This document shows, in pieces, positions 1-6,310 of a stretch of DNA of 6,310 bases (position 1 is its first letter; the number at the start of each line of letters is the position of its first letter). Below the pieces are notes generated by a model. That model did not search any database. It was not told where the DNA came from and was given only the letters and a program-made list of their open reading frames with translations. The position numbers and the translations under genes are program-made. Origin of the DNA: a virus (Duplodnaviria; Heunggongvirae; Uroviricota; Caudoviricetes); the IMG/VR virus record IMGVR_UViG_2660238309_000007, positions 1 through 6,310 of that record; one strand, 5' to 3'.

Positions 1-61
1 TGTTGTTCTGAGGTGAGCATATCACCTCTGTTCAGGTGGCCAAATTCAGTGTGCCACTTCA
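1..61. repeat. Left terminal inverted repeat, 61 bp, perfect reverse complement of 6249-6309
   Basis: Direct comparison: the reverse complement of 6249-6309 equals 1-61 base for base; the match breaks at 62 vs 6248. Internal hairpins: gaggtga (10-16) pairs with tcacctc (22-28) around a 5-nt loop, and gtggc (36-40) pairs with gccac (53-57). Confidence 0.9.
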
Positions 62-81
62 GACATTCTGAGGTGACAGCG

Positions 82-960
82 ATGATGACGTTTAACCTGC
101 GTGAACAACAAAAAAGACTACAGGCGCGAATGGATGAGTTACGGGCAGAGATTGCATTTGCTCAGAAGGGCGAAAAGCCATGGCCTTATCGTTCCTGCCT
201 GATGCGTGAAGGTCGCGGATATTGCGAAAAACATGGCGAATATCACACGCATATACTGGTGTGGAGCGATCGTAATGGCGAGGACAGAGAAGAAATTTCA
301 TGCTGCCCTGACTGCTTAATCGCTGAGGCCAACGATTTGACCATGGAGCTGTCGTCCATCAAGGCGGAAGAGCTGACTGATAACGCCGGAATTGCCCTGC
401 GTTTTCGGGACTGCGAGTTTGATAATTATCTGGAGGTTAATCCTGGCGCAGCCAGAAATCTTGCGGCCTGTCGCCGCTATGCGGAGAACTGGCCAGATAT
501 GCTGGAGAACGGTACCAGTCTTGTTATGACCGGCAGTTGTGGTACCGGAAAAAATCATCTGGCTGTGGCTATGGCAAAACACATCATCCGTAACTATCTG
601 GCCAGTGTGGAGATCACCGACGTGATGCGCCTTACCCGTGCTGTGAAAAATTGCTGGCGGAATGACAGCGAAAAAACAGCGGATGAAGTTATTGAGCGTT
701 ATGCGTCAATGGATTTGCTGATCATCGACGAAGTTGGCGTTCAGTTTGGCAGCGCGGCTGAAATGGCTATTTTGCAGGAAATTATCAACGCCAGGTACGA
801 AAGTATCTTGCCCACCATTCTGATCAGTAACCTCTCACCGGAAGAGTTGTGGGCGTTCATCAGTCCCCGAATTGCCGACAGGATCACAGACGGGGGACGC
901 AACTGGTTGTCGTTTAACTGGCCCAGTTACCGTTCTCGTATCAGAGGTGTGGCTGCATGA
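82..960 (+). CDS. DnaC/IstB-like AAA+ helicase loader (phage replication protein)
   Basis: Walker A GSCGTGKNHLAVAMA and Walker B LLIIDEVG in the translation; N-terminal Cys/His cluster (C-x7-C ... CCPDC). Start placed at ATG 82 (GAGGTG Shine-Dalgarno at 70-75) rather than the GTG at 13 of the ORF track. Stop overlaps the next start (ATGA at 957-960). Confidence 0.8.
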   Translation: MMTFNLREQQKRLQARMDELRAEIAFAQKGEKPWPYRSCLMREGRGYCEKHGEYHTHILVWSDRNGEDREEISCCPDCLIAEANDLTMELSSIKAEELTDNAGIALRFRDCEFDNYLEVNPGAARNLAACRRYAENWPDMLENGTSLVMTGSCGTGKNHLAVAMAKHIIRNYLASVEITDVMRLTRAVKNCWRNDSEKTADEVIERYASMDLLIIDEVGVQFGSAAEMAILQEIINARYESILPTILISNLSPEELWAFISPRIADRITDGGRNWLSFNWPSYRSRIRGVAA

Positions 961-2348
961 CAACTCCAGTATGGCGTAACGATGACCTTGAAGGCGCTGT
1001 CATCGGCGCGTTCTTTCTGCGCGGAGCAGATCCTGAAGTGATGGATATTCTGGCCACACTGCCAGCGGACGTTTTTTCTGTACGAGCGTATCAGGATATC
1101 TATACAGGCATCTGCAGACAGGCCCGTGTTTCAGGAGTGATTGACCCCGTGCTGTTGTGTAATGAGATGCCGGAACTTGCCCCGGTGATTACTGATACCG
1201 GGCGTAAAACCTGGGTGAAGTCTTCACTGGAGCACTATGTTGCAGCGTTGCGGCGCAATGCCGCACTGCGCGATGCAGAAAAAACACTGAATGAGGCGCT
1301 GCAGAAATTACGTGATGCGCATACCTGTGAAGCAGCTGAAGATGCCCTGAAGGATGCGCAGAACATGATGGTCACACTGTCGACAGGAAAGGGCGTCATT
1401 CAGCCGGTACATATTGATGATGTGCTTCCGGAAGTGGTTGAGCGTGTTGAATGCCGGAATCAGGGGCTGGAGAAATCCAGGACGTTGATGACCGGTATTG
1501 ATGAACTGGACGCAAAAACAGGCGGTATGGAGCCCGGAGACCTGGTATTCATTGCCGCCCGTCCTTCGATGGGGAAAACCGAACTTGCGCTGGACATCAT
1601 CGACAAGGTGACTGAGCAGGGGCATGGTGTGCTTCTGTTCACCATGGAGATGGCGAACATCCAGATTGGTGAACGTATGGTGTCTGCGGCTGGAGGGATG
1701 CCAGTATCACGCCTGAAATCTGTGGCTCACTTTGAAGATGAAGACTGGACGCGTTTCTCACAAGGGGTGGGGCGGATGACCGGGCGCAATATCTGGATGG
1801 TGGACCAGGCGAACCTGGCCATTGATGAGATATGCGCAACAACGAAACACCACCTGATTAAATATCCGGAAACGGCGCTGGTGGTGGTTGATTATCTCGG
1901 GCTGATAAAAACCCGAACCACGGGGCGTCATGACCTTGCCGTGGGTGAAATCTCAAAGGGGCTTAAAGGCCTGGCAAAATCCGGTGGTTTTCCGTTGATT
2001 GCGCTGAGCCAGCTCTCCCGCGGTGTGGAGTCCAGACCCAATAAACGTCCCATGAACTCAGACCTGAAAAATTCCGGAGAAATAGAGGCGGATGCAGACA
2101 TCATTCTGATGCTTTACAGGGATGAAGTGTACAACCCGGATACGCAGGCCAGGGGCATCGCAGAAATCAATATCACGAAACAACGTAACGGTTCTCTGGG
2201 AACGATTTACCGGCGTTTTTATAACGGACATTTTCTGCCTGTGGACCAGGAAAGTGCACGGGTGCTTTCCACTCCCATGAAGCCCGGCAATCCGCGCAGA
2301 TACAGTAATAAACGAACTGACAGCAGTAAGATGGAGCGTTTCTTTTGA
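957..2348 (+). CDS. DnaB-family replicative helicase
   Basis: N-terminal DnaB-like domain pattern (LEGAVIGAFFL ... YQDIYTGI), Walker A ARPSMGKTELALDI, Walker B LVVVDYLGLI, motif IALSQLSR and late RecA-fold motifs. GAGGTG Shine-Dalgarno at 944-949. ATGA overlap with the upstream loader implies translational coupling. Confidence 0.88.
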   Translation: MTTPVWRNDDLEGAVIGAFFLRGADPEVMDILATLPADVFSVRAYQDIYTGICRQARVSGVIDPVLLCNEMPELAPVITDTGRKTWVKSSLEHYVAALRRNAALRDAEKTLNEALQKLRDAHTCEAAEDALKDAQNMMVTLSTGKGVIQPVHIDDVLPEVVERVECRNQGLEKSRTLMTGIDELDAKTGGMEPGDLVFIAARPSMGKTELALDIIDKVTEQGHGVLLFTMEMANIQIGERMVSAAGGMPVSRLKSVAHFEDEDWTRFSQGVGRMTGRNIWMVDQANLAIDEICATTKHHLIKYPETALVVVDYLGLIKTRTTGRHDLAVGEISKGLKGLAKSGGFPLIALSQLSRGVESRPNKRPMNSDLKNSGEIEADADIILMLYRDEVYNPDTQARGIAEINITKQRNGSLGTIYRRFYNGHFLPVDQESARVLSTPMKPGNPRRYSNKRTDSSKMERFF

Positions 2349-2602
2349 ACAACCAGACAATGACTTTTACCCCTGAACAATTGCGTAAACACGCGCAGGA
2401 AATGCTGCGTCATGCTGAACAACTCGAAAAAACGGGCATAACAAAAGATGCTATCCGTAAAGATATGGTACCCGCGCTTCGGGAACTGATGCAGGCGAAG
2501 CATCGCGCACAGAAAGCAGTAGATGAGCTGGTGGACTGTGTGGCAGAGCTGGAAACCAGAGTCGGAAAGTTTGAAAAACTGGTGCAGGAGGCGCTGCGCT
2601 GA
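2345..2602 (+). CDS. Small hypothetical protein, predicted coiled-coil (about 80-85 aa)
   Basis: ORF in the track; start ambiguous between TTG 2345 (GGAG about 10 nt upstream, overlaps helicase stop) and ATG 2360. No recognisable catalytic motif. Position matches the small-gene nin/ren zone of lambdoid phages. Confidence 0.5.
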   Translation: MNNQTMTFTPEQLRKHAQEMLRHAEQLEKTGITKDAIRKDMVPALRELMQAKHRAQKAVDELVDCVAELETRVGKFEKLVQEALR

Positions 2603-2697
2603 TGCGCCATGAGTTTGTTTTGCCCTGGCTTGTGCGCGATCATTATGTCCCTGGTGGAAAGCCCGGGATAAAAATCACCGAACCGGAGAGTATTTGA
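2602..2697 (+). CDS. 31-aa micro-ORF, translationally coupled on both sides (hypothetical)
   Basis: ATG at 2602 overlaps the stop of the upstream ORF (TGATG) and its own TGA at 2695-2697 overlaps the ATG of the NinH-like gene (TGATG). Translation MRHEFVLPWLVRDHYVPGGKPGIKITEPESI. Not in the ORF track (too short). Confidence 0.3.
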   Translation: MRHEFVLPWLVRDHYVPGGKPGIKITEPESI

Positions 2698-2897
2698 TGA
2701 GCGTCAAAATTCAAACGATACCGGAACTGCTTATCCAGACACGAGGTAATATGACCGAAGTTTCACGAATGCTGAACTGTAATCGCGCCACGGTAAGAAA
2801 ATATGCTGAAGATAAAGAGGGCAAAGGGCACGCCATTGTTGATGGTGTTCTGATTGTTCATCGTGGATGGGACAGGGGTAAAGACAGTGATGCGTGA
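2697..2897 (+). CDS. ninH: NinH-like small DNA-binding protein with Fis-type helix-turn-helix
   Basis: 66 aa; [22 protein letters not shown] matches the Fis/NtrC-type HTH signature (TRGN-x-T ... R-x-T-hydrophobic-RK); size and position immediately upstream of Q match lambdoid NinH. GGAG at 2684-2687 upstream of ATG 2697. Recalled family resemblance, not searched. Confidence 0.75.
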
Positions 2898-3270
2898 TAT
2901 TCAGCAGGTTCTTGAGCGCTGGGGCGCGTGGGTGGCTAATAATCATGAGGATGTGACCTGGTCGTCCATTGCTGCCGGTTTTAAGGGATTAATCCCTTCA
3001 AAAGTAAAATCCCGCCCGCAATGCTGTGACGATGACGCGATGGTTATATGTGGGTGTATGGCCCGCCTTAACCGGAACAACAACGATCTACATGACTTGC
3101 TGGTTGACTACTACGTGTTTGGGATGACATTCATGACGCTGGCGCGGAAGCATGGATGCTCAGATGGTTATATAGGAAAGAAGCTACAAAAAGCCGAGGG
3201 GGTGGTGGAAGGAATGTTGATGATGTTGGGTGTCCGGTTAGAAATGGACAAATATATTGAACATCCCTGA
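2890..3270 (+). CDS. Q-type late antiterminator (phage 82 / QuuD-like family)
   Basis: 126 aa from ATG 2890 (8-nt overlap with the NinH-like stop). Sequence [33 protein letters not shown] ... [16 protein letters not shown] resembles, from memory, the small Q antiterminators of cryptic lambdoid prophages. Followed by a short intergenic region and an intrinsic terminator as expected for a pR'/tR' cassette. Confidence 0.75.
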
Positions 3271-3356
3271 TGGTAAGGGGCGACTTTCTAGAAAATATTT
3301 TACGTACGTAAAAAACGGGATATTCTGTTAAGAGTGGTTGCTTCGCCACACAGCTT
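3271..3356 (+). promoter_or_regulatory. Expected location of late promoter (pR'-like) and Q-utilisation site
   Basis: Inferred from position between the Q stop and the terminator; AT-rich stretch with weak hexamers (ttttac 3298-3303, 17-bp spacer, tattct 3321-3326). No strong consensus match. Confidence 0.3.
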
Positions 3357-3382
3357 AAACCCGCCTCCGGGCGGGTTTTTTA
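3357..3382 (+). terminator. Rho-independent terminator (tR'-like)
   Basis: Stem cccgcc (3360-3365), loop tccg, stem ggcggg (3370-3375), then T-tract tttttt (3376-3381); an upstream aaa can pair with the T-tract. Confidence 0.75.
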
Positions 3383-3431
3383 TGCCTGAAAAACGGTACA
3401 GGACGTTAAACACGCTGGTGGTCAGATGAGT

Positions 3432-3460
3432 TTGCAGATGTGATGACATATGGTTATTAT
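3432..3460 (+). promoter_or_regulatory. Candidate sigma70 promoter for the tRNA array
   Basis: ttgcag (3432-3437), 17-bp spacer, tattat (3455-3460), about 10 nt upstream of the first tRNA. Moderate hexamer quality only. Confidence 0.35.
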
Positions 3461-3469
3461 TCTGCCTCC

Positions 3470-3546
3470 GGCCCTTTAGCTCAGTTGGTCAGAGCGAGCG
3501 ACTCATAATCGCCAGGTCGCTGGTTCAAGTCCAGCAAGGGCCACCA
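3470..3546 (+). tRNA. tRNA-Ile2 (anticodon CAU, presumably lysidine-modified, reads AUA)
   Basis: Cloverleaf read by hand: acceptor ggccctt/aagggcc, D-arm gctc...gagc, anticodon loop ctCATaa (CAT at 3504-3506), T-loop ttcaagt, discriminator a, encoded CCA. C4 and C5 in the acceptor stem and close similarity to enterobacterial ileX-type tRNA favour Ile2 over Met. Confidence 0.8.
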
Positions 3547-3547
3547 A

Positions 3548-3624
3548 CCACCACTAGCTCATCCGGATAGAGCATCAACCTTCTAAGTTGACGGTGCGAG
3601 GTTCGAGTCCTCGGTGGTGGGCCA
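3548..3624 (+). tRNA. tRNA-Arg (anticodon UCU, reads AGA/AGG)
   Basis: Acceptor ccaccac/gtggtgg (7 perfect pairs), D-arm gctc/gagc, anticodon stem tcaac/gttga with loop ctTCTaa (TCT at 3582-3584), T-arm cgagg-ttcgagt-cctcg, encoded CCA. Confidence 0.85.
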
Positions 3625-3626
3625 GC

Positions 3627-3702
<76 letters not shown>

Positions 3703-3705
3703 TAT

Positions 3706-3780
<75 letters not shown>

Positions 3781-3894
3781 TGACCTTTCTTAAAGTACTC
3801 CAACCTACTGAATCCTAAGGGATACGGCTTTAAGCCTCCTTGCAGAGTTACTTACTGTAACCCACTGTGTAACCCTCTCAGGGCATGCAGACAT

Positions 3895-5499
3895 ATGATT
3901 CAGCTATCCAGTAGTCACAAACTTCCAGCAGTCTACTATCTCTACCAGCGTAACGGCGTCTACTACTTCCGTCTTAGGGTCAGACAATCAAACAATGATA
4001 GAATGACCTCAATATCATTACGGACCAAGGATAGACGCACCGCTATGGCTTACTCAAGGCACATAAAGGCAGCACTCAAGGCAATACACGCAGACAGACC
4101 CAACGCTACCTATGAGGAAATGAGGGAACACCTTAAGGACATCGCTGAGTGTGAACTGTCTATGGGCCGTTCAGATCTCTTTGAGCCTGACATGAGGGAT
4201 ATCTACCGGGACCAATACGGAGAACTTGGTGAGAGCCTTACCGATGCTCTGGCTAGTGAGCCGCTAAGCATTGACCAGCATCGTTACATCAATGAGGCCC
4301 TGAAGGTGCTAAAAGCCTGTATGAGGCGTATCGAAGCGGGAGACAGTCAGCCTCTGATAGATTACGTCGATCTTTTTAATGATATTGATAGGCAAGATAA
4401 CCAAGCAGACTCTGTGTCCCTATCTGTTAATGCTCCAGAAGTAAAACCAGAAGTTACGCCTAGCATTACCATAGCGAGCCTCTTTGAACAATACGAAGCG
4501 GAGAACTATCAGAACTGGAAGCCTGCAACCTTAAGGGAAAACAAGGCGTCACACGCTGCGTTAATCGAAATATTCGACCATCTGGGTCTCAATGCAGACG
4601 CTAACAGGGCTGACATGCTTAGGGTCCGTGATGTGCTCCAGCAGTTACCTAGGAACCGTAAGCAGCGCTTCAAGGATGTCCCACTTGCTGACCTGTTGAG
4701 CCGTGAAGATAAGACAGATTGTCTGGATGTCGTTACCATCAACAACAAGTATCTTATTAAGATGGCTGCTGTCTTTAGGTGGGCTGTGCGCAATGACTTG
4801 ATTAAAAAGAACATGACTGAGGGTCTGGAGCTTAAAGTCCCTCAGCGTAAAGCCTCAGGGGCCCGTAACGCCTTCTCTACGGAGCAGGTGGGGCAACTAC
4901 TGGTCGCAGCTAAGGCATACTCTCAGAAGACCTCTGGTAAGCCGTATCATTATTATGTTACCGCCTTGGCTGCTATCACTGGGGCGAGACTCAATGAAAT
5001 AGCCCAACTACAGGTCAAAGACGTCAGGACCACTGAGGCGGGAACCGTTTATATTCATATCAATGAAGACGATAGTAGTCTACCCGGTAAGAGCATCAAG
5101 AACGCTCATAGTGACCGCTGTGTGCCTCTGGTCGATGGGGCCTATGGTTTTATATTGGCTGACTTTATGGCGCTTGTAGAGACCCGTAGAGGCGCTGACG
5201 GTGATGACGCTATGGTGTTCGATGGTCTGCGTCTCATGAAGAACGGTTACGGTGAGCAGGTGAGTAAATGGTTTAATCGGACGTTGTTGCCTAAAGTCCT
5301 CGTAGACCGTAGCGGCTTAGCGTTTCACTCGTTTAGACATACAGTTGCGGCCCAGTTAAAACAACATGGGGTCGAGTTGGCGTATGCACAGGCGATCATG
5401 GGGCATAGTTCAGGGTCTATTACGTACGACCGTTATGCTAAAGAGGTCGAGGTTGATAGGCTGGTCAATGTGATGGCTGATGTTTATAAGGAGACCTAG
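3895..5499 (+). CDS. Tyrosine recombinase / phage-type integrase (534 aa)
   Basis: C-terminal catalytic signature in the translation: ITGARLNEI (Arg), LAFHSFRHTVA (H-x-x-R), AIMGHSSG (His), SITYDRY (catalytic Tyr). N-terminal YYLYQRNGVYYFRLRV resembles an integrase N-terminal DNA-binding motif. Lies immediately 3' of the tRNA array. No strong Shine-Dalgarno upstream of ATG 3895. Confidence 0.88.
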   Translation: MIQLSSSHKLPAVYYLYQRNGVYYFRLRVRQSNNDRMTSISLRTKDRRTAMAYSRHIKAALKAIHADRPNATYEEMREHLKDIAECELSMGRSDLFEPDMRDIYRDQYGELGESLTDALASEPLSIDQHRYINEALKVLKACMRRIEAGDSQPLIDYVDLFNDIDRQDNQADSVSLSVNAPEVKPEVTPSITIASLFEQYEAENYQNWKPATLRENKASHAALIEIFDHLGLNADANRADMLRVRDVLQQLPRNRKQRFKDVPLADLLSREDKTDCLDVVTINNKYLIKMAAVFRWAVRNDLIKKNMTEGLELKVPQRKASGARNAFSTEQVGQLLVAAKAYSQKTSGKPYHYYVTALAAITGARLNEIAQLQVKDVRTTEAGTVYIHINEDDSSLPGKSIKNAHSDRCVPLVDGAYGFILADFMALVETRRGADGDDAMVFDGLRLMKNGYGEQVSKWFNRTLLPKVLVDRSGLAFHSFRHTVAAQLKQHGVELAYAQAIMGHSSGSITYDRYAKEVEVDRLVNVMADVYKET

Positions 5500-5587
5500 A
5501 GGAGACCATAGTCTAGGATGACACTTACTACAGACCTGTGTGGTCATGTTTTTGACTCATAGTTTTCTCTACTTGTCAAGGGATAAT

Positions 5588-5610
5588 TAATACGACTCAC
5601 TATAGGGAGA
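5588..5610 (+). promoter_or_regulatory. T7 RNA polymerase promoter, perfect 23-bp class III consensus (copy 1)
   Basis: taatacgactcactatagggaga at 5588-5610, exact match to the T7 consensus -17 to +6; predicted +1 G at 5605; transcription rightward on the + strand. Confidence 0.85.
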
Positions 5611-5708
5611 AGGGACACAAAAAGTTTTCTCTTCTAGGATGACACTTACTACAGACCTGTGCGGTCATGTTTTTGACTCATAGTTTTCTCTGCTTGTCAA
5701 GGGGTAAT

Positions 5709-5731
5709 TAATACGACTCACTATAGGGAGA
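5709..5731 (+). promoter_or_regulatory. T7 RNA polymerase promoter, perfect 23-bp consensus (copy 2)
   Basis: taatacgactcactatagggaga at 5709-5731; same orientation as copy 1. Confidence 0.85.
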
Positions 5732-5828
5732 AGGGACACAAAAAGTTTTCTCTTCTAGGATGACACTTACTACAGACCTGTGTGGTCATGTTTTTGACTC
5801 ATGGTTTTCTCTACTTGTCAAGGATAAT

Positions 5829-5851
5829 TAATACGACTCACTATAGGGAGA
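5829..5851 (+). promoter_or_regulatory. T7 RNA polymerase promoter, perfect 23-bp consensus (copy 3)
   Basis: taatacgactcactatagggaga at 5829-5851; same orientation. Confidence 0.85.
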
Positions 5852-6048
5852 AGGGACACAAAAAGTTTTCTCTTCTAGGACAACTAACCGTAACTTATCG
5901 CATCCTTTCAGGGGCGGGATGACCAATTACAGACACCAAGCGTTCTACTTAAAGTGAATGCTTCCTGTGTGCTCTGGGTCAGTCGATAAGTGAATAGCAA
6001 TAAGACACAATCATCTTAATTATGGTCTCTAGTCCCTACAGGGGCTTA

Positions 6049-6192
6049 ACTTAAAGTTAACTTAAAGACACAATTAAAGATTAACTTATAGTATTACTTA
6101 AAGTTAACTTAAAGACACAATTAGAGATTAACTTTAAGTATTAAATAAAAGATTTAATTAAAGACCAATTAAAGATTAACTCTAAGGGAATA
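6049..6192. repeat. AT-rich short tandem repeat array (TTAAAG / ACTTAAAG motifs; two 47-bp units plus degenerate copies)
   Basis: 6049-6095 (acttaaagttaacttaaagacacaattaaagattaacttatagtatt) and 6096-6142 differ at only 3 positions; 6143-6192 continues with degenerate aattaaag units. No ORF. Lies about 200 bp downstream of the third T7 promoter. Confidence 0.85.
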
Positions 6193-6248
6193 CCTTAAGG
6201 GGTGATGATATTTATAATAATCAATCACCAAACCTATAGGTCTTCTCT

Positions 6249-6309
6249 TGAAGTGGCACACTGAATTTGGCCACCTGAACAGAGGTGATATGCTCACCTC
6301 AGAACAACA
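6249..6309. repeat. Right terminal inverted repeat, 61 bp, perfect reverse complement of 1-61
   Basis: See left copy; perfect over 61 bp, with the same internal hairpins on the opposite strand. Confidence 0.9.
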
Positions 6310-6310
6310 C

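Follow-up and report, generated by a model that had tools for sequence, protein, structure and literature searches.

According to PMC13236587, which cites Chung and Hinkle (1990), plasmids carrying a T7 origin, a pac site and the terminal repeat are replicated, packaged and transduced by bacteriophage T7; the engineered T7 phagemids are described there as small circles with a promoter-type origin, pac and a repeat junction. Here, we describe a family of small integrative islands with a comparable set of cis elements, one copy of which lies in a 6,310-nt stretch of viral DNA (IMG/VR record IMGVR_UViG_2660238309_000007, positions 1 to 6,310; Caudoviricetes), referred to below as the window. In this copy, an array of three exact T7 promoters stands downstream of an integrase gene (int). 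We estimate the probability at roughly two in three that the array serves a small integrative element, a parasite of virulent T7-like phages, as its control region for transcription and replication, which would make the element in effect a natural "T7 phagemid". The satellite reading is based on the fact that the cis elements of the island are the set that T7 needs to replicate, package and transduce a plasmid. The phagemids and the island share this set in the same orientation (promoter, repeat start, repeat end with pause signal). Unlike the T7 phagemids, the island occurs naturally and integrates, using a tyrosine or serine recombinase and an att site in tRNA-Gly, and it has genes of its own; its promoter type varies with the host genus, and its packaging is a step that we infer. 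Moreover, its equivalent of the terminal repeat is ~0.35-1.0 kb long, spans attP and would be assembled only after excision.

Other described satellites resemble the islands in part. P4 and the cos-type phage-inducible chromosomal islands (PICIs), too, are integrated, carry a cis copy of the packaging signal of the helper and have no terminase of their own. They use, however, temperate P2-like or lambdoid helpers, measure 10-15 kb and bring their own primase/helicase together with AlpA, Stl and delta modules, whereas for the islands a virulent T7-like helper is proposed, and promoters for phage polymerase take the place of regulatory and replication genes. Neither an AlpA/Stl regulator nor a primase module nor terS or capsid-redirection domains were found in the proteins of the islands, whose overall size is 4.2-6.5 kb. 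Capsid-forming PICIs (cf-PICIs) possess a full head module (portal, protease, terminase, connectors) in ~15 kb, whereas the larger of our islands hold solely a capsid protein and a DUF6971 protein. The PICMIs (~6 kb) and PLEs of Vibrio are, like our islands, small chromosomal islands living on strictly lytic helpers, but they have primases or replication initiators as well as regulators, lack promoters for a helper RNA polymerase, belong to other hosts and helpers, and show no sequence relationship to the islands.

The DUF4145 gene that is the subject of the RAZR/PD-T7-4 locus papers (PMC9519451, PMC13017515) is a cargo gene of this island family. Term searches of both papers returned "T7 promoter" as a methodological item only, and neither junction mimics nor a satellite lifestyle. 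Among open-access papers and bioRxiv preprints we found no T7 satellite and no description of these islands beyond the RAZR gene itself, although a description that escaped detection is possible. We rate the islands as phage satellites with an unusual, near-total reliance on cis mimicry and on a virulent T7-like helper. Slightly less firmly, we also consider it probable that they form a new minimal class of satellites of virulent T7-like (Autographiviridae) phages across Enterobacterales. In this class, host-exact promoters of one or sometimes several types would be the sole switch for induction and replication, the terminal repeat would be split across attP with one end inside int, the packageable junction would be created only by excision, and some members would carry a capsid gene or RAZR.

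T7 is the textbook example of a strictly lytic phage. If the satellite reading is true, T7-like phages, many of which have uses in phage therapy and biocontrol, act as agents of horizontal transfer in E. coli, Shigella, Klebsiella, Pectobacterium and other genera. It would then be understood where in genomes RAZR/PD-T7-4 has its home, and the islands would represent a natural parasite that is induced, replicated and packaged almost wholly via cis-acting mimicry of its helper. They would also provide ready-made, host-matched phagemid backbones for T7-family transducing particles, while typing of their promoters gives a genome-encoded record of the T7-like polymerase specificities met by a lineage.

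Phage promoters in the window and across hosts

The 23-nt consensus of the T7 class III promoters, TAATACGACTCACTATAGGGAGA (-17 to +6), occurs exactly three times in the window, each time on the + strand, at 5588..5610 (+1 at 5605), 5709..5731 (+1 at 5726) and 5829..5851 (+1 at 5846). When the sequence was shuffled 200 times, no match to the 23-mer was obtained even with up to three mismatches allowed. The promoters are distributed one per unit over a tandem array of three 120-121-nt units at 5512..5880 (+), for which Tandem Repeats Finder gave a period of 121, 3.1 copies and 96% matches. A T7 promoter is transcribed by T7 RNA polymerase and is silent to the host polymerase, and a sigma-70 scan detected no host-type promoter overlapping the array. 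Exact matching, Tandem Repeats Finder and the list of open reading frames (ORFs) thus bear out what an earlier sequence-only reading had described, i.e., three perfect rightward T7 promoters, one per ~121-bp unit, in a window with no RNA polymerase gene. The same 23-mer is present in six exact copies in the T7 genome, and the promoter taken together with its downstream sequence is closest to T7 phiOR (36/42 positions). In other E. coli strains, the number of promoter units ranges from one to three.

It had also been argued that the promoter core is selectively conserved, as the repeat units differ only outside of it. Four substitutions and an indel of one base separate the units, and every one of them lies upstream of position -17. 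With five differences over 121 positions, however, the probability that none falls in a 23-nt core by chance is ~0.35, so this argument, drawn from the window itself, is not significant. The conclusion nevertheless stands on other grounds, namely the comparison across genera. The promoter core CACTATAGGGAGA was searched for in the loci of 20 species with up to one mismatch allowed. The 24 matches obtained came from 14 of the 20 loci, invariably on the + strand and no more than 1.5 kb after int; the other 463 kb of strand-positions had none. Upstream of the core, the specificity region varies by host. E. coli islands have the T7 type. Of two K11-type promoters in the K. pneumoniae island, one is exact, with a 23-mer that the K11 genome contains three times, and the other deviates at one position; the island also has one exact T7 promoter and one promoter of the type found in Przondovirus KN4-1/KP32. 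The latter type matches 256 phage records, 248 of them Klebsiella phages, at 11-12 places per genome. In Pectobacterium, the island promoter is identical over 28/28 positions to the annotated promoters of phages PP81, PP47 and PPWS4. Where compared, island promoters therefore match the local T7-like phage, and this covariation of the specificity region with the phages of the host speaks for functional promoters directed at infecting T7-like phages. In the Klebsiella locus L016, the K11, T7 and KN4-1/KP32 types lie within 600 nt (8265-8841), which suggests a response to several helper phages.

Two elements follow the promoters in the window. The first, just downstream of the last promoter, is a leader element CCGTAACTTATCGCATCCTTTCAGGGGCGGGATGACCA with a small hairpin (5888..5925, +), kept in E. 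coli islands and in a distant circular element (L041, 1073-1112); RNA folding of the transcript start and of the leader was not significant by z-score (-1.3 and -1.7). The second is an array of AT-rich repeats of the (A/T)CTTAAAG type (6046..6186, +; 76% A+T; Tandem Repeats Finder). TAAAG occurs in it 4.3 times per 100 nt, compared with 0.29 for the window as a whole, and the array resembles the CCTAAAG repeats at the T7 left end, where the corresponding values are 5.0 and 0.22. We regard this array as a candidate replication-initiation region.

Further repeats were noted around the promoters. Each 121-nt unit of the window opens with GATGAC motifs, which are related to a 13-nt unit, GATGACCATAGGC. 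About 13 tandem copies of the latter stand directly after the int stop codon in the E. coli island L002 (16767-16925), and 2-4 copies in other islands. These repeats may serve as protein-binding iterons.

Genome-end mimics, attachment sites and cargo

The islands were subjected to a sensitive comparison with the T7 genome (NC_001604), and the non-coding block preceding attR was searched against 50,697 phage genomes. Inside the int reading frame, the window segment 4410..4443 (+), CTCTGTGTCCCT|ATCTGTTA, agrees with T7 149-183 at 30/35 positions, with 20 consecutive identities. In T7, these positions cover the final 12 bases of the 160-bp terminal repeat and, after them, ATCTGTT, the class II pause/termination signal of the T7 concatemer junction. 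The arrangement CTCTGTGTCCCT|ATCTGTT, found at window 4410-4428 on the + strand, closes the terminal repeat in T7, T3 and K11. In the abstract of a preprint (bioRxiv 10.64898/2026.02.12.705533), the T7 concatemer junction is named as a natural class II terminator. A 20-mer of the repeat-end mimic is identical in the island integrases of Klebsiella, Pectobacterium and isolate RIT691.

The opposite end of the T7 repeat is mimicked at the opposite end of the islands. The start of the block before attR (L002 18981-19049) matches T7 39743-39810 (E 1e-5); there, the unique sequence of the right end gives way to the terminal repeat, and cutting at this junction produces the T7 left end. In the search of the phage genomes, the top matches listed for the block were all T7-like phages, and in complete annotated records these matches sit at the right terminal-repeat junction. 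The Klebsiella island matches T3 37944-37988 (86.7%, E 2e-5), where the T3 repeat begins at 37978. The pattern ...ACAAAAATCTGAG....TA|TCTnAnAGT...CCCCC is common to T7, T3 and K11 and to the islands of E. coli, Klebsiella, Pectobacterium, the Enterobacteriaceae isolate RIT691 and Proteus. In intact E. coli islands, the repeat-start junction (...AAAAATCTGAG....TA|TCTCACAGT...) has 3-5 mismatches over 26 positions to T7; in intact islands it lies ~255 nt before attR. It is missing from the window because the copy there is truncated by an insertion sequence (IS). In the integrated state, the repeat-start and repeat-end motifs are ~3.3 kb apart and in the wrong order. Once brought together across attP by excision, they would bound a repeat-like segment, ~925 nt long in E. 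coli (261 + 664), that would lie downstream of the promoters in the same orientation, as in the T7 concatemer (phiOR, repeat, pause site). Two weak reverse-strand similarities to T7, possibly due to chance, were also recorded (window 4057-4103 vs T7 160-115, 74%, E 0.015; L002 17531-17624 vs T7 39365-39277, 67%).

The integrase of the island is a tyrosine recombinase of 534 aa (3895..5499, +; Pfam Phage_integrase 2e-17, phrog_1 2e-44), 100% identical to an NCBI 'Shigella flexneri' cluster with 769 members. It has relatives at 65-90% identity across Enterobacterales, including 20 species representatives at 65-87%. Intact E. coli islands are bounded at glyU by perfect 23-nt direct repeats, TTCGATTCCCTTCGCCCGCTCCA, and occupied as well as empty sites were both observed; the islands thus possess the recombinase and att sites of their own that are expected of satellites in general. 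Repeated CTGTAACC motifs at 3850..3876 (+), read from the sequence, are likely arm-type binding sites of the integrase, and the same motif pair, GTGTAACCATAACTGTAACC, adjoins attR in every intact island. Some members have a serine recombinase/resolvase adjoining attR (L022 10592-11224; L032 10623-11210; L066 728-1372), and in two of the contigs, L066 and L067, it is the only recombinase, with no tyrosine integrase. Two further loci, in E. coli ECMA0423 (L028) and Shigella flexneri SFBU1023 (L029), encode an integrase 73% identical to that of the window and have no promoter core within 1.5 kb after int. They appear to be a different type of island, and the promoter module would accordingly not be universal in the integrase clade.

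One layout is shared by intact islands of several Enterobacterales genera, with int first, then 1-4 rightward promoters, and after these an AT-rich TAAAG repeat and genes of the Rha/KilA-N type. E. coli FT130 and 14EC001 (4.2-kb islands) and K. pneumoniae ATCC 13883 are examples of strains with an intact copy. The E. coli glyU islands (4.2-4.5 kb) begin with attL and int, in some cases a DUF4145 gene, short tandem repeats and 1-3 T7 promoters. These are followed by the leader, the TAAAG-type AT-rich array, a degenerate promoter CAATACGACTTACTAATAGGAGA, a KilA-N/Rha-type gene, one or two small genes, a conserved non-coding block of ~300 nt and attR. The ~300-nt block stays conserved even in those E. 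coli islands in which the gene preceding it has been replaced. The degenerate T7-like promoter, with five mismatches, is conserved in L002 (17727-17763) and at the same place in L004-L010, ~240 nt upstream of KilA-N and with tandem TCAATACGAA repeats in front of it. It may act as a weak or class II-like promoter, and the window copy has lost it.

The first gene after the promoters is always of the KilA-N, Rha, Bro-N or Ant type, and the KilA-N ORF weakly matches PD-T4-2_B (E 4e-5). In the locus L011, a DUF4145 gene overlapping the end of int is PD-T7-4/RAZR (PADLOC E 5e-102; 6247-6888). RAZR genes are also present in L016 (7624-8256), L020 (7616-8245) and L022 (7559-8200), always directly after int and upstream of the phage promoters. 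Most islands have no RAZR, and no RAZR-type ORF (ZFD-DUF4145, HEPN) was found in the window. According to PMC13017515 (Nature 2026), RAZR is an abortive-infection RNase that T7 and T3 portal rings activate; Vassallo 2022 (PMC9519451) describes the PD-T7-4 gene as one that "often overlaps an integrase gene". The island family would be the genomic context behind this remark.

The larger islands of 6.2-6.4 kb (Klebsiella, Pectobacterium, Proteus and the E. coli island L001) have an additional two-gene module before the junction block, encoding a DUF6971 protein and a protein of 365-402 aa (L016 10149-11837; L019 6194-7847; L033 9920-11590; L001 20295-21917). The second protein is predicted to have the HK97 capsid fold, an assignment obtained solely by structure prediction and fold search; at the level of sequence, the 402-aa protein matched nothing in Pfam, PHROGs or PDB sequences, nor T7 gp10 in BLASTP. 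The family comprises ~40 clusters in the protein database, mostly from Enterobacterales. The DUF6971 protein, which has a coiled-coil-like tail, is possibly a scaffold. Both proteins are absent from the 4.2-kb islands and from the window copy. No polymerase, primase, terminase, portal or tail gene was found among the islands whose genes were examined. With a capsid protein at most, the islands have no genes for autonomous virion production, as expected of elements that depend on a helper.

Unit-length contigs of related elements with the signature of free circles were also found in metagenomes. The ends of contig L041 (6,628 nt) overlap by 141 nt, as is usual when a circle is assembled, and the contig runs from the promoters through Rha, DUF6971 and capsid genes to the repeat-start box and, after ~350 nt, to CCCTATCTGTT at the start of int. 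The same permuted order, capsid-junction-int, is present in L042 and L043, which come from other samples. Two Joint Genome Institute (JGI) contigs (L066 and L067) have overlaps of 123 nt, a unit of ~6.4 kb, the same cis elements and a capsid homologue. Two IMG/VR matches to the junction 23-mer, L014 and L015, were dismissed as chance, since these AT-rich marine phage contigs have no other similarity to the island.

The satellite reading and its rivals

The proposed mechanism is as follows. The RNA polymerase of an infecting T7-like phage would fire the island promoters. The transcripts would express the Rha/KilA-N/Ant-type genes and, in the larger variants, also the scaffold-like and HK97-fold capsid proteins, and they would also act as replication primers for the phage DNA polymerase, in the manner of the T7 primary origin, at which tandem promoters precede an AT-rich region. 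Excision would join the repeat-start junction to the repeat end and ATCTGTT inside int. Since the two motifs are joined only by excision, a T7-type concatemer junction (~0.9 kb, spanning attP) would be confined to circles and concatemers. At ATCTGTT, polymerase that had started from the island promoters would pause, and the helper terminase would cut and package the element, either as multimers in helper heads or in small heads made by the island. If the mechanism holds, packaged DNA should have its left end at ...TA|TCTAACAGT, and its right end should fall at ...CTCTG(T/C)...CT|, just before ATCTGTT.

The sequence-only reading had offered three roles for the array: a satellite or hitchhiker on an infecting T7-like phage, a decoy or trigger, and the remnant of a temperate T7-like phage. 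The promoters, junction mimics, capsid gene and circles favour the first of these, and the third is not supported, as set out below. A decoy or trigger role is compatible with the first and may coexist with it via RAZR, via the promoter-driven KilA-N/Rha genes, or via titration of polymerase or terminase.

Several observations weigh against the satellite reading. Excision, replication and packaging upon T7 infection are all steps that we infer. No excisionase, primase or terminase gene was recognised among the island proteins, and the ATCTGTT motif was not found within int in 12 of the 21 int sequences examined. The AT-rich array is only weakly similar to the T7 primary origin region (5912-6007), with 66% identity. 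An element of 4.2 kb would need a multimer of about nine units, or an unknown small head, in order to be packaged. As regards the free form, the exact 49-mer of the E. coli-type attP junction was present in none of the IMG/VR or JGI metagenome contigs, and a degenerate pattern of this junction was likewise absent from IMG/VR. The circles that were found come from related subfamilies, and integrated copies in tandem could in principle leave the same signature in an assembly. The right-hand half of the island is missing from the window copy, so that any present activity can be claimed for its promoters at most. Finally, abortive infection by RAZR fits defence at least as well as hitchhiking.

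This last point leads to an alternative that we regard as unlikely, though it deserves attention, namely an infection-triggered defence cassette. According to this explanation, the T7 promoters are a sensor driving genes for killing or arrest, the array and the mimics soak up polymerase and terminase, and the integrase merely moves the cassette. The portal-triggered RAZR/PD-T7-4 directly after int in L011, L016, L020 and L022 speaks for it, but this gene lies upstream of the promoters and hence is not driven by them when the island is integrated. The constant presence of a KilA-N, Rha, Bro-N or Ant-type gene as the first one downstream, together with the weak PD-T4-2_B match of the KilA-N ORF, would agree with promoter-driven effectors, and a promoter number of 1-4 is as expected of a dosage-sensitive decoy. 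A defence cassette, however, needs neither both ends of a T7-type repeat placed so as to join across attP nor an HK97-fold capsid protein of its own, and it gives no reason for unit-length circles. Moreover, defence and hitchhiking are compatible, as in PLE and PICIs, which makes this explanation a partial rather than an exclusive rival of the satellite reading.

Far less probable is the view that the islands are decayed remnants of a temperate T7-like phage, in which an end region, promoters and an integrase were left after deletion. In its favour, T7-like genome ends do have promoters, TAAAG repeats and terminal-repeat junction motifs, decay is plain to see in the window copy, and temperate T7-like phages bearing an integrase are known, e.g., LUZ100 (PMC10134795). 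Nonetheless, no RNA polymerase, DNA polymerase, terminase, portal or tail gene is present in the island loci examined, the capsid protein has no sequence similarity to T7 gp10, and beyond matches of the size of a promoter or junction there is no DNA similarity to any of the 50,697 phage genomes. Moreover, the layout of 4.2-6.5 kb is fixed and comes with perfect, intact att repeats in many genera; such compactness indicates a maintained unit and not random decay.

That the promoters are cloning-vector contamination or an assembly chimera, as might be suspected of a short contig flanked by repeated IS ends and bearing the very 23-nt consensus used in expression vectors, has a negligible probability, since megablast of 5500-6248 against 72,556 plasmid records gave no match, the flanks are island-specific and not vector sequence, and the array recurs with its flanks in 91 of 5,426 complete E. 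coli genomes, every time in the chromosome and in isolates of many countries and hosts. The two checks on which the sequence-only reading had made its promoter array depend, a vector search and a look at independent assemblies, thus both came out in favour of a natural array, and two IMG/VR records carry it as well, one of them (L012) being 100% identical to the window.

Prophage neighbourhood and truncation of the window copy

The left part of the window belongs to a different element. Positions 82-3270 encode DnaC-like and DnaB-like proteins, a NinH-like helix-turn-helix protein, a Q antiterminator and two small ORFs, i.e., a lambdoid replication/late-control segment similar to that of phiP27 and Stx phages. 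A tRNA cluster follows at 3470-3780 (Met, Arg, Thr, Gly; ARAGORN, Rfam), the last member of which is the tRNA-Gly(UCC) of the phiP27-like prophage (3706..3780, +). Rfam reported these four tRNAs and no other RNA family in the window, and a scan of 3700-6310 for host promoters and terminators gave nothing above shuffle expectation.

The prophage segment 2600-3780 was found at 100% identity in nine complete E. coli genomes, which diverge from the window right after the last base of tRNA-Gly(UCC). Those genomes represent the matching empty site for this second insertion point, in the prophage tRNA-Gly. From 3781 onward, the window is 86-94% identical to the element which, in 30 complete E. coli genomes, lies after the chromosomal glyU, between actS and ygeQ/ETT2. 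Since the prophage match stops at 3780 and the island is found at glyU elsewhere, int (3895-5499) and the promoter array constitute a separate island, and the integrase has to be removed from the lambdoid context to which it had been assigned. By this comparison, the island used a phage-borne tRNA-Gly as an alternative attachment site. The core of its attL, TTCGATTCCCGCTGCCCGCTCCA at 3758-3780, is the 3' end of tRNA-Gly(UCC) and has three mismatches to the 23-nt att core of the glyU islands. The lambdoid context is incidental, because the prophage is merely the integration target.

The island part of the window (3781..6248, +) comprises the left arm, int, the promoter array and the AT-rich repeats, and is cut at 6248 by an IS911-type insertion. 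The end of this insertion sequence occupies 6249..6309 (-) and has a mirror copy at 1-61, with which it forms a perfect 61-nt inverted repeat; it matches IS911 in phage Sf6 at 100%. The window contig spans the distance between two oppositely oriented IS911-type copies. Comparison of the window with L012 and with the uninterrupted L013 revealed a 3-bp target duplication, TCT, at the right-hand IS insertion. L012 is identical to window 4961-6310 and runs on through the IS into remnants of the island, while L013 has the same insertion without the IS911 copy and only one promoter unit. By comparison with these two records, the window copy is a truncated remnant, probably immobile, with intact promoters, and its three-unit array is a recent amplification. 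Past the IS, L012 continues with a Rha-like gene cut by IS1, then an IS3 fragment, and then the tail-fibre genes of a prophage.

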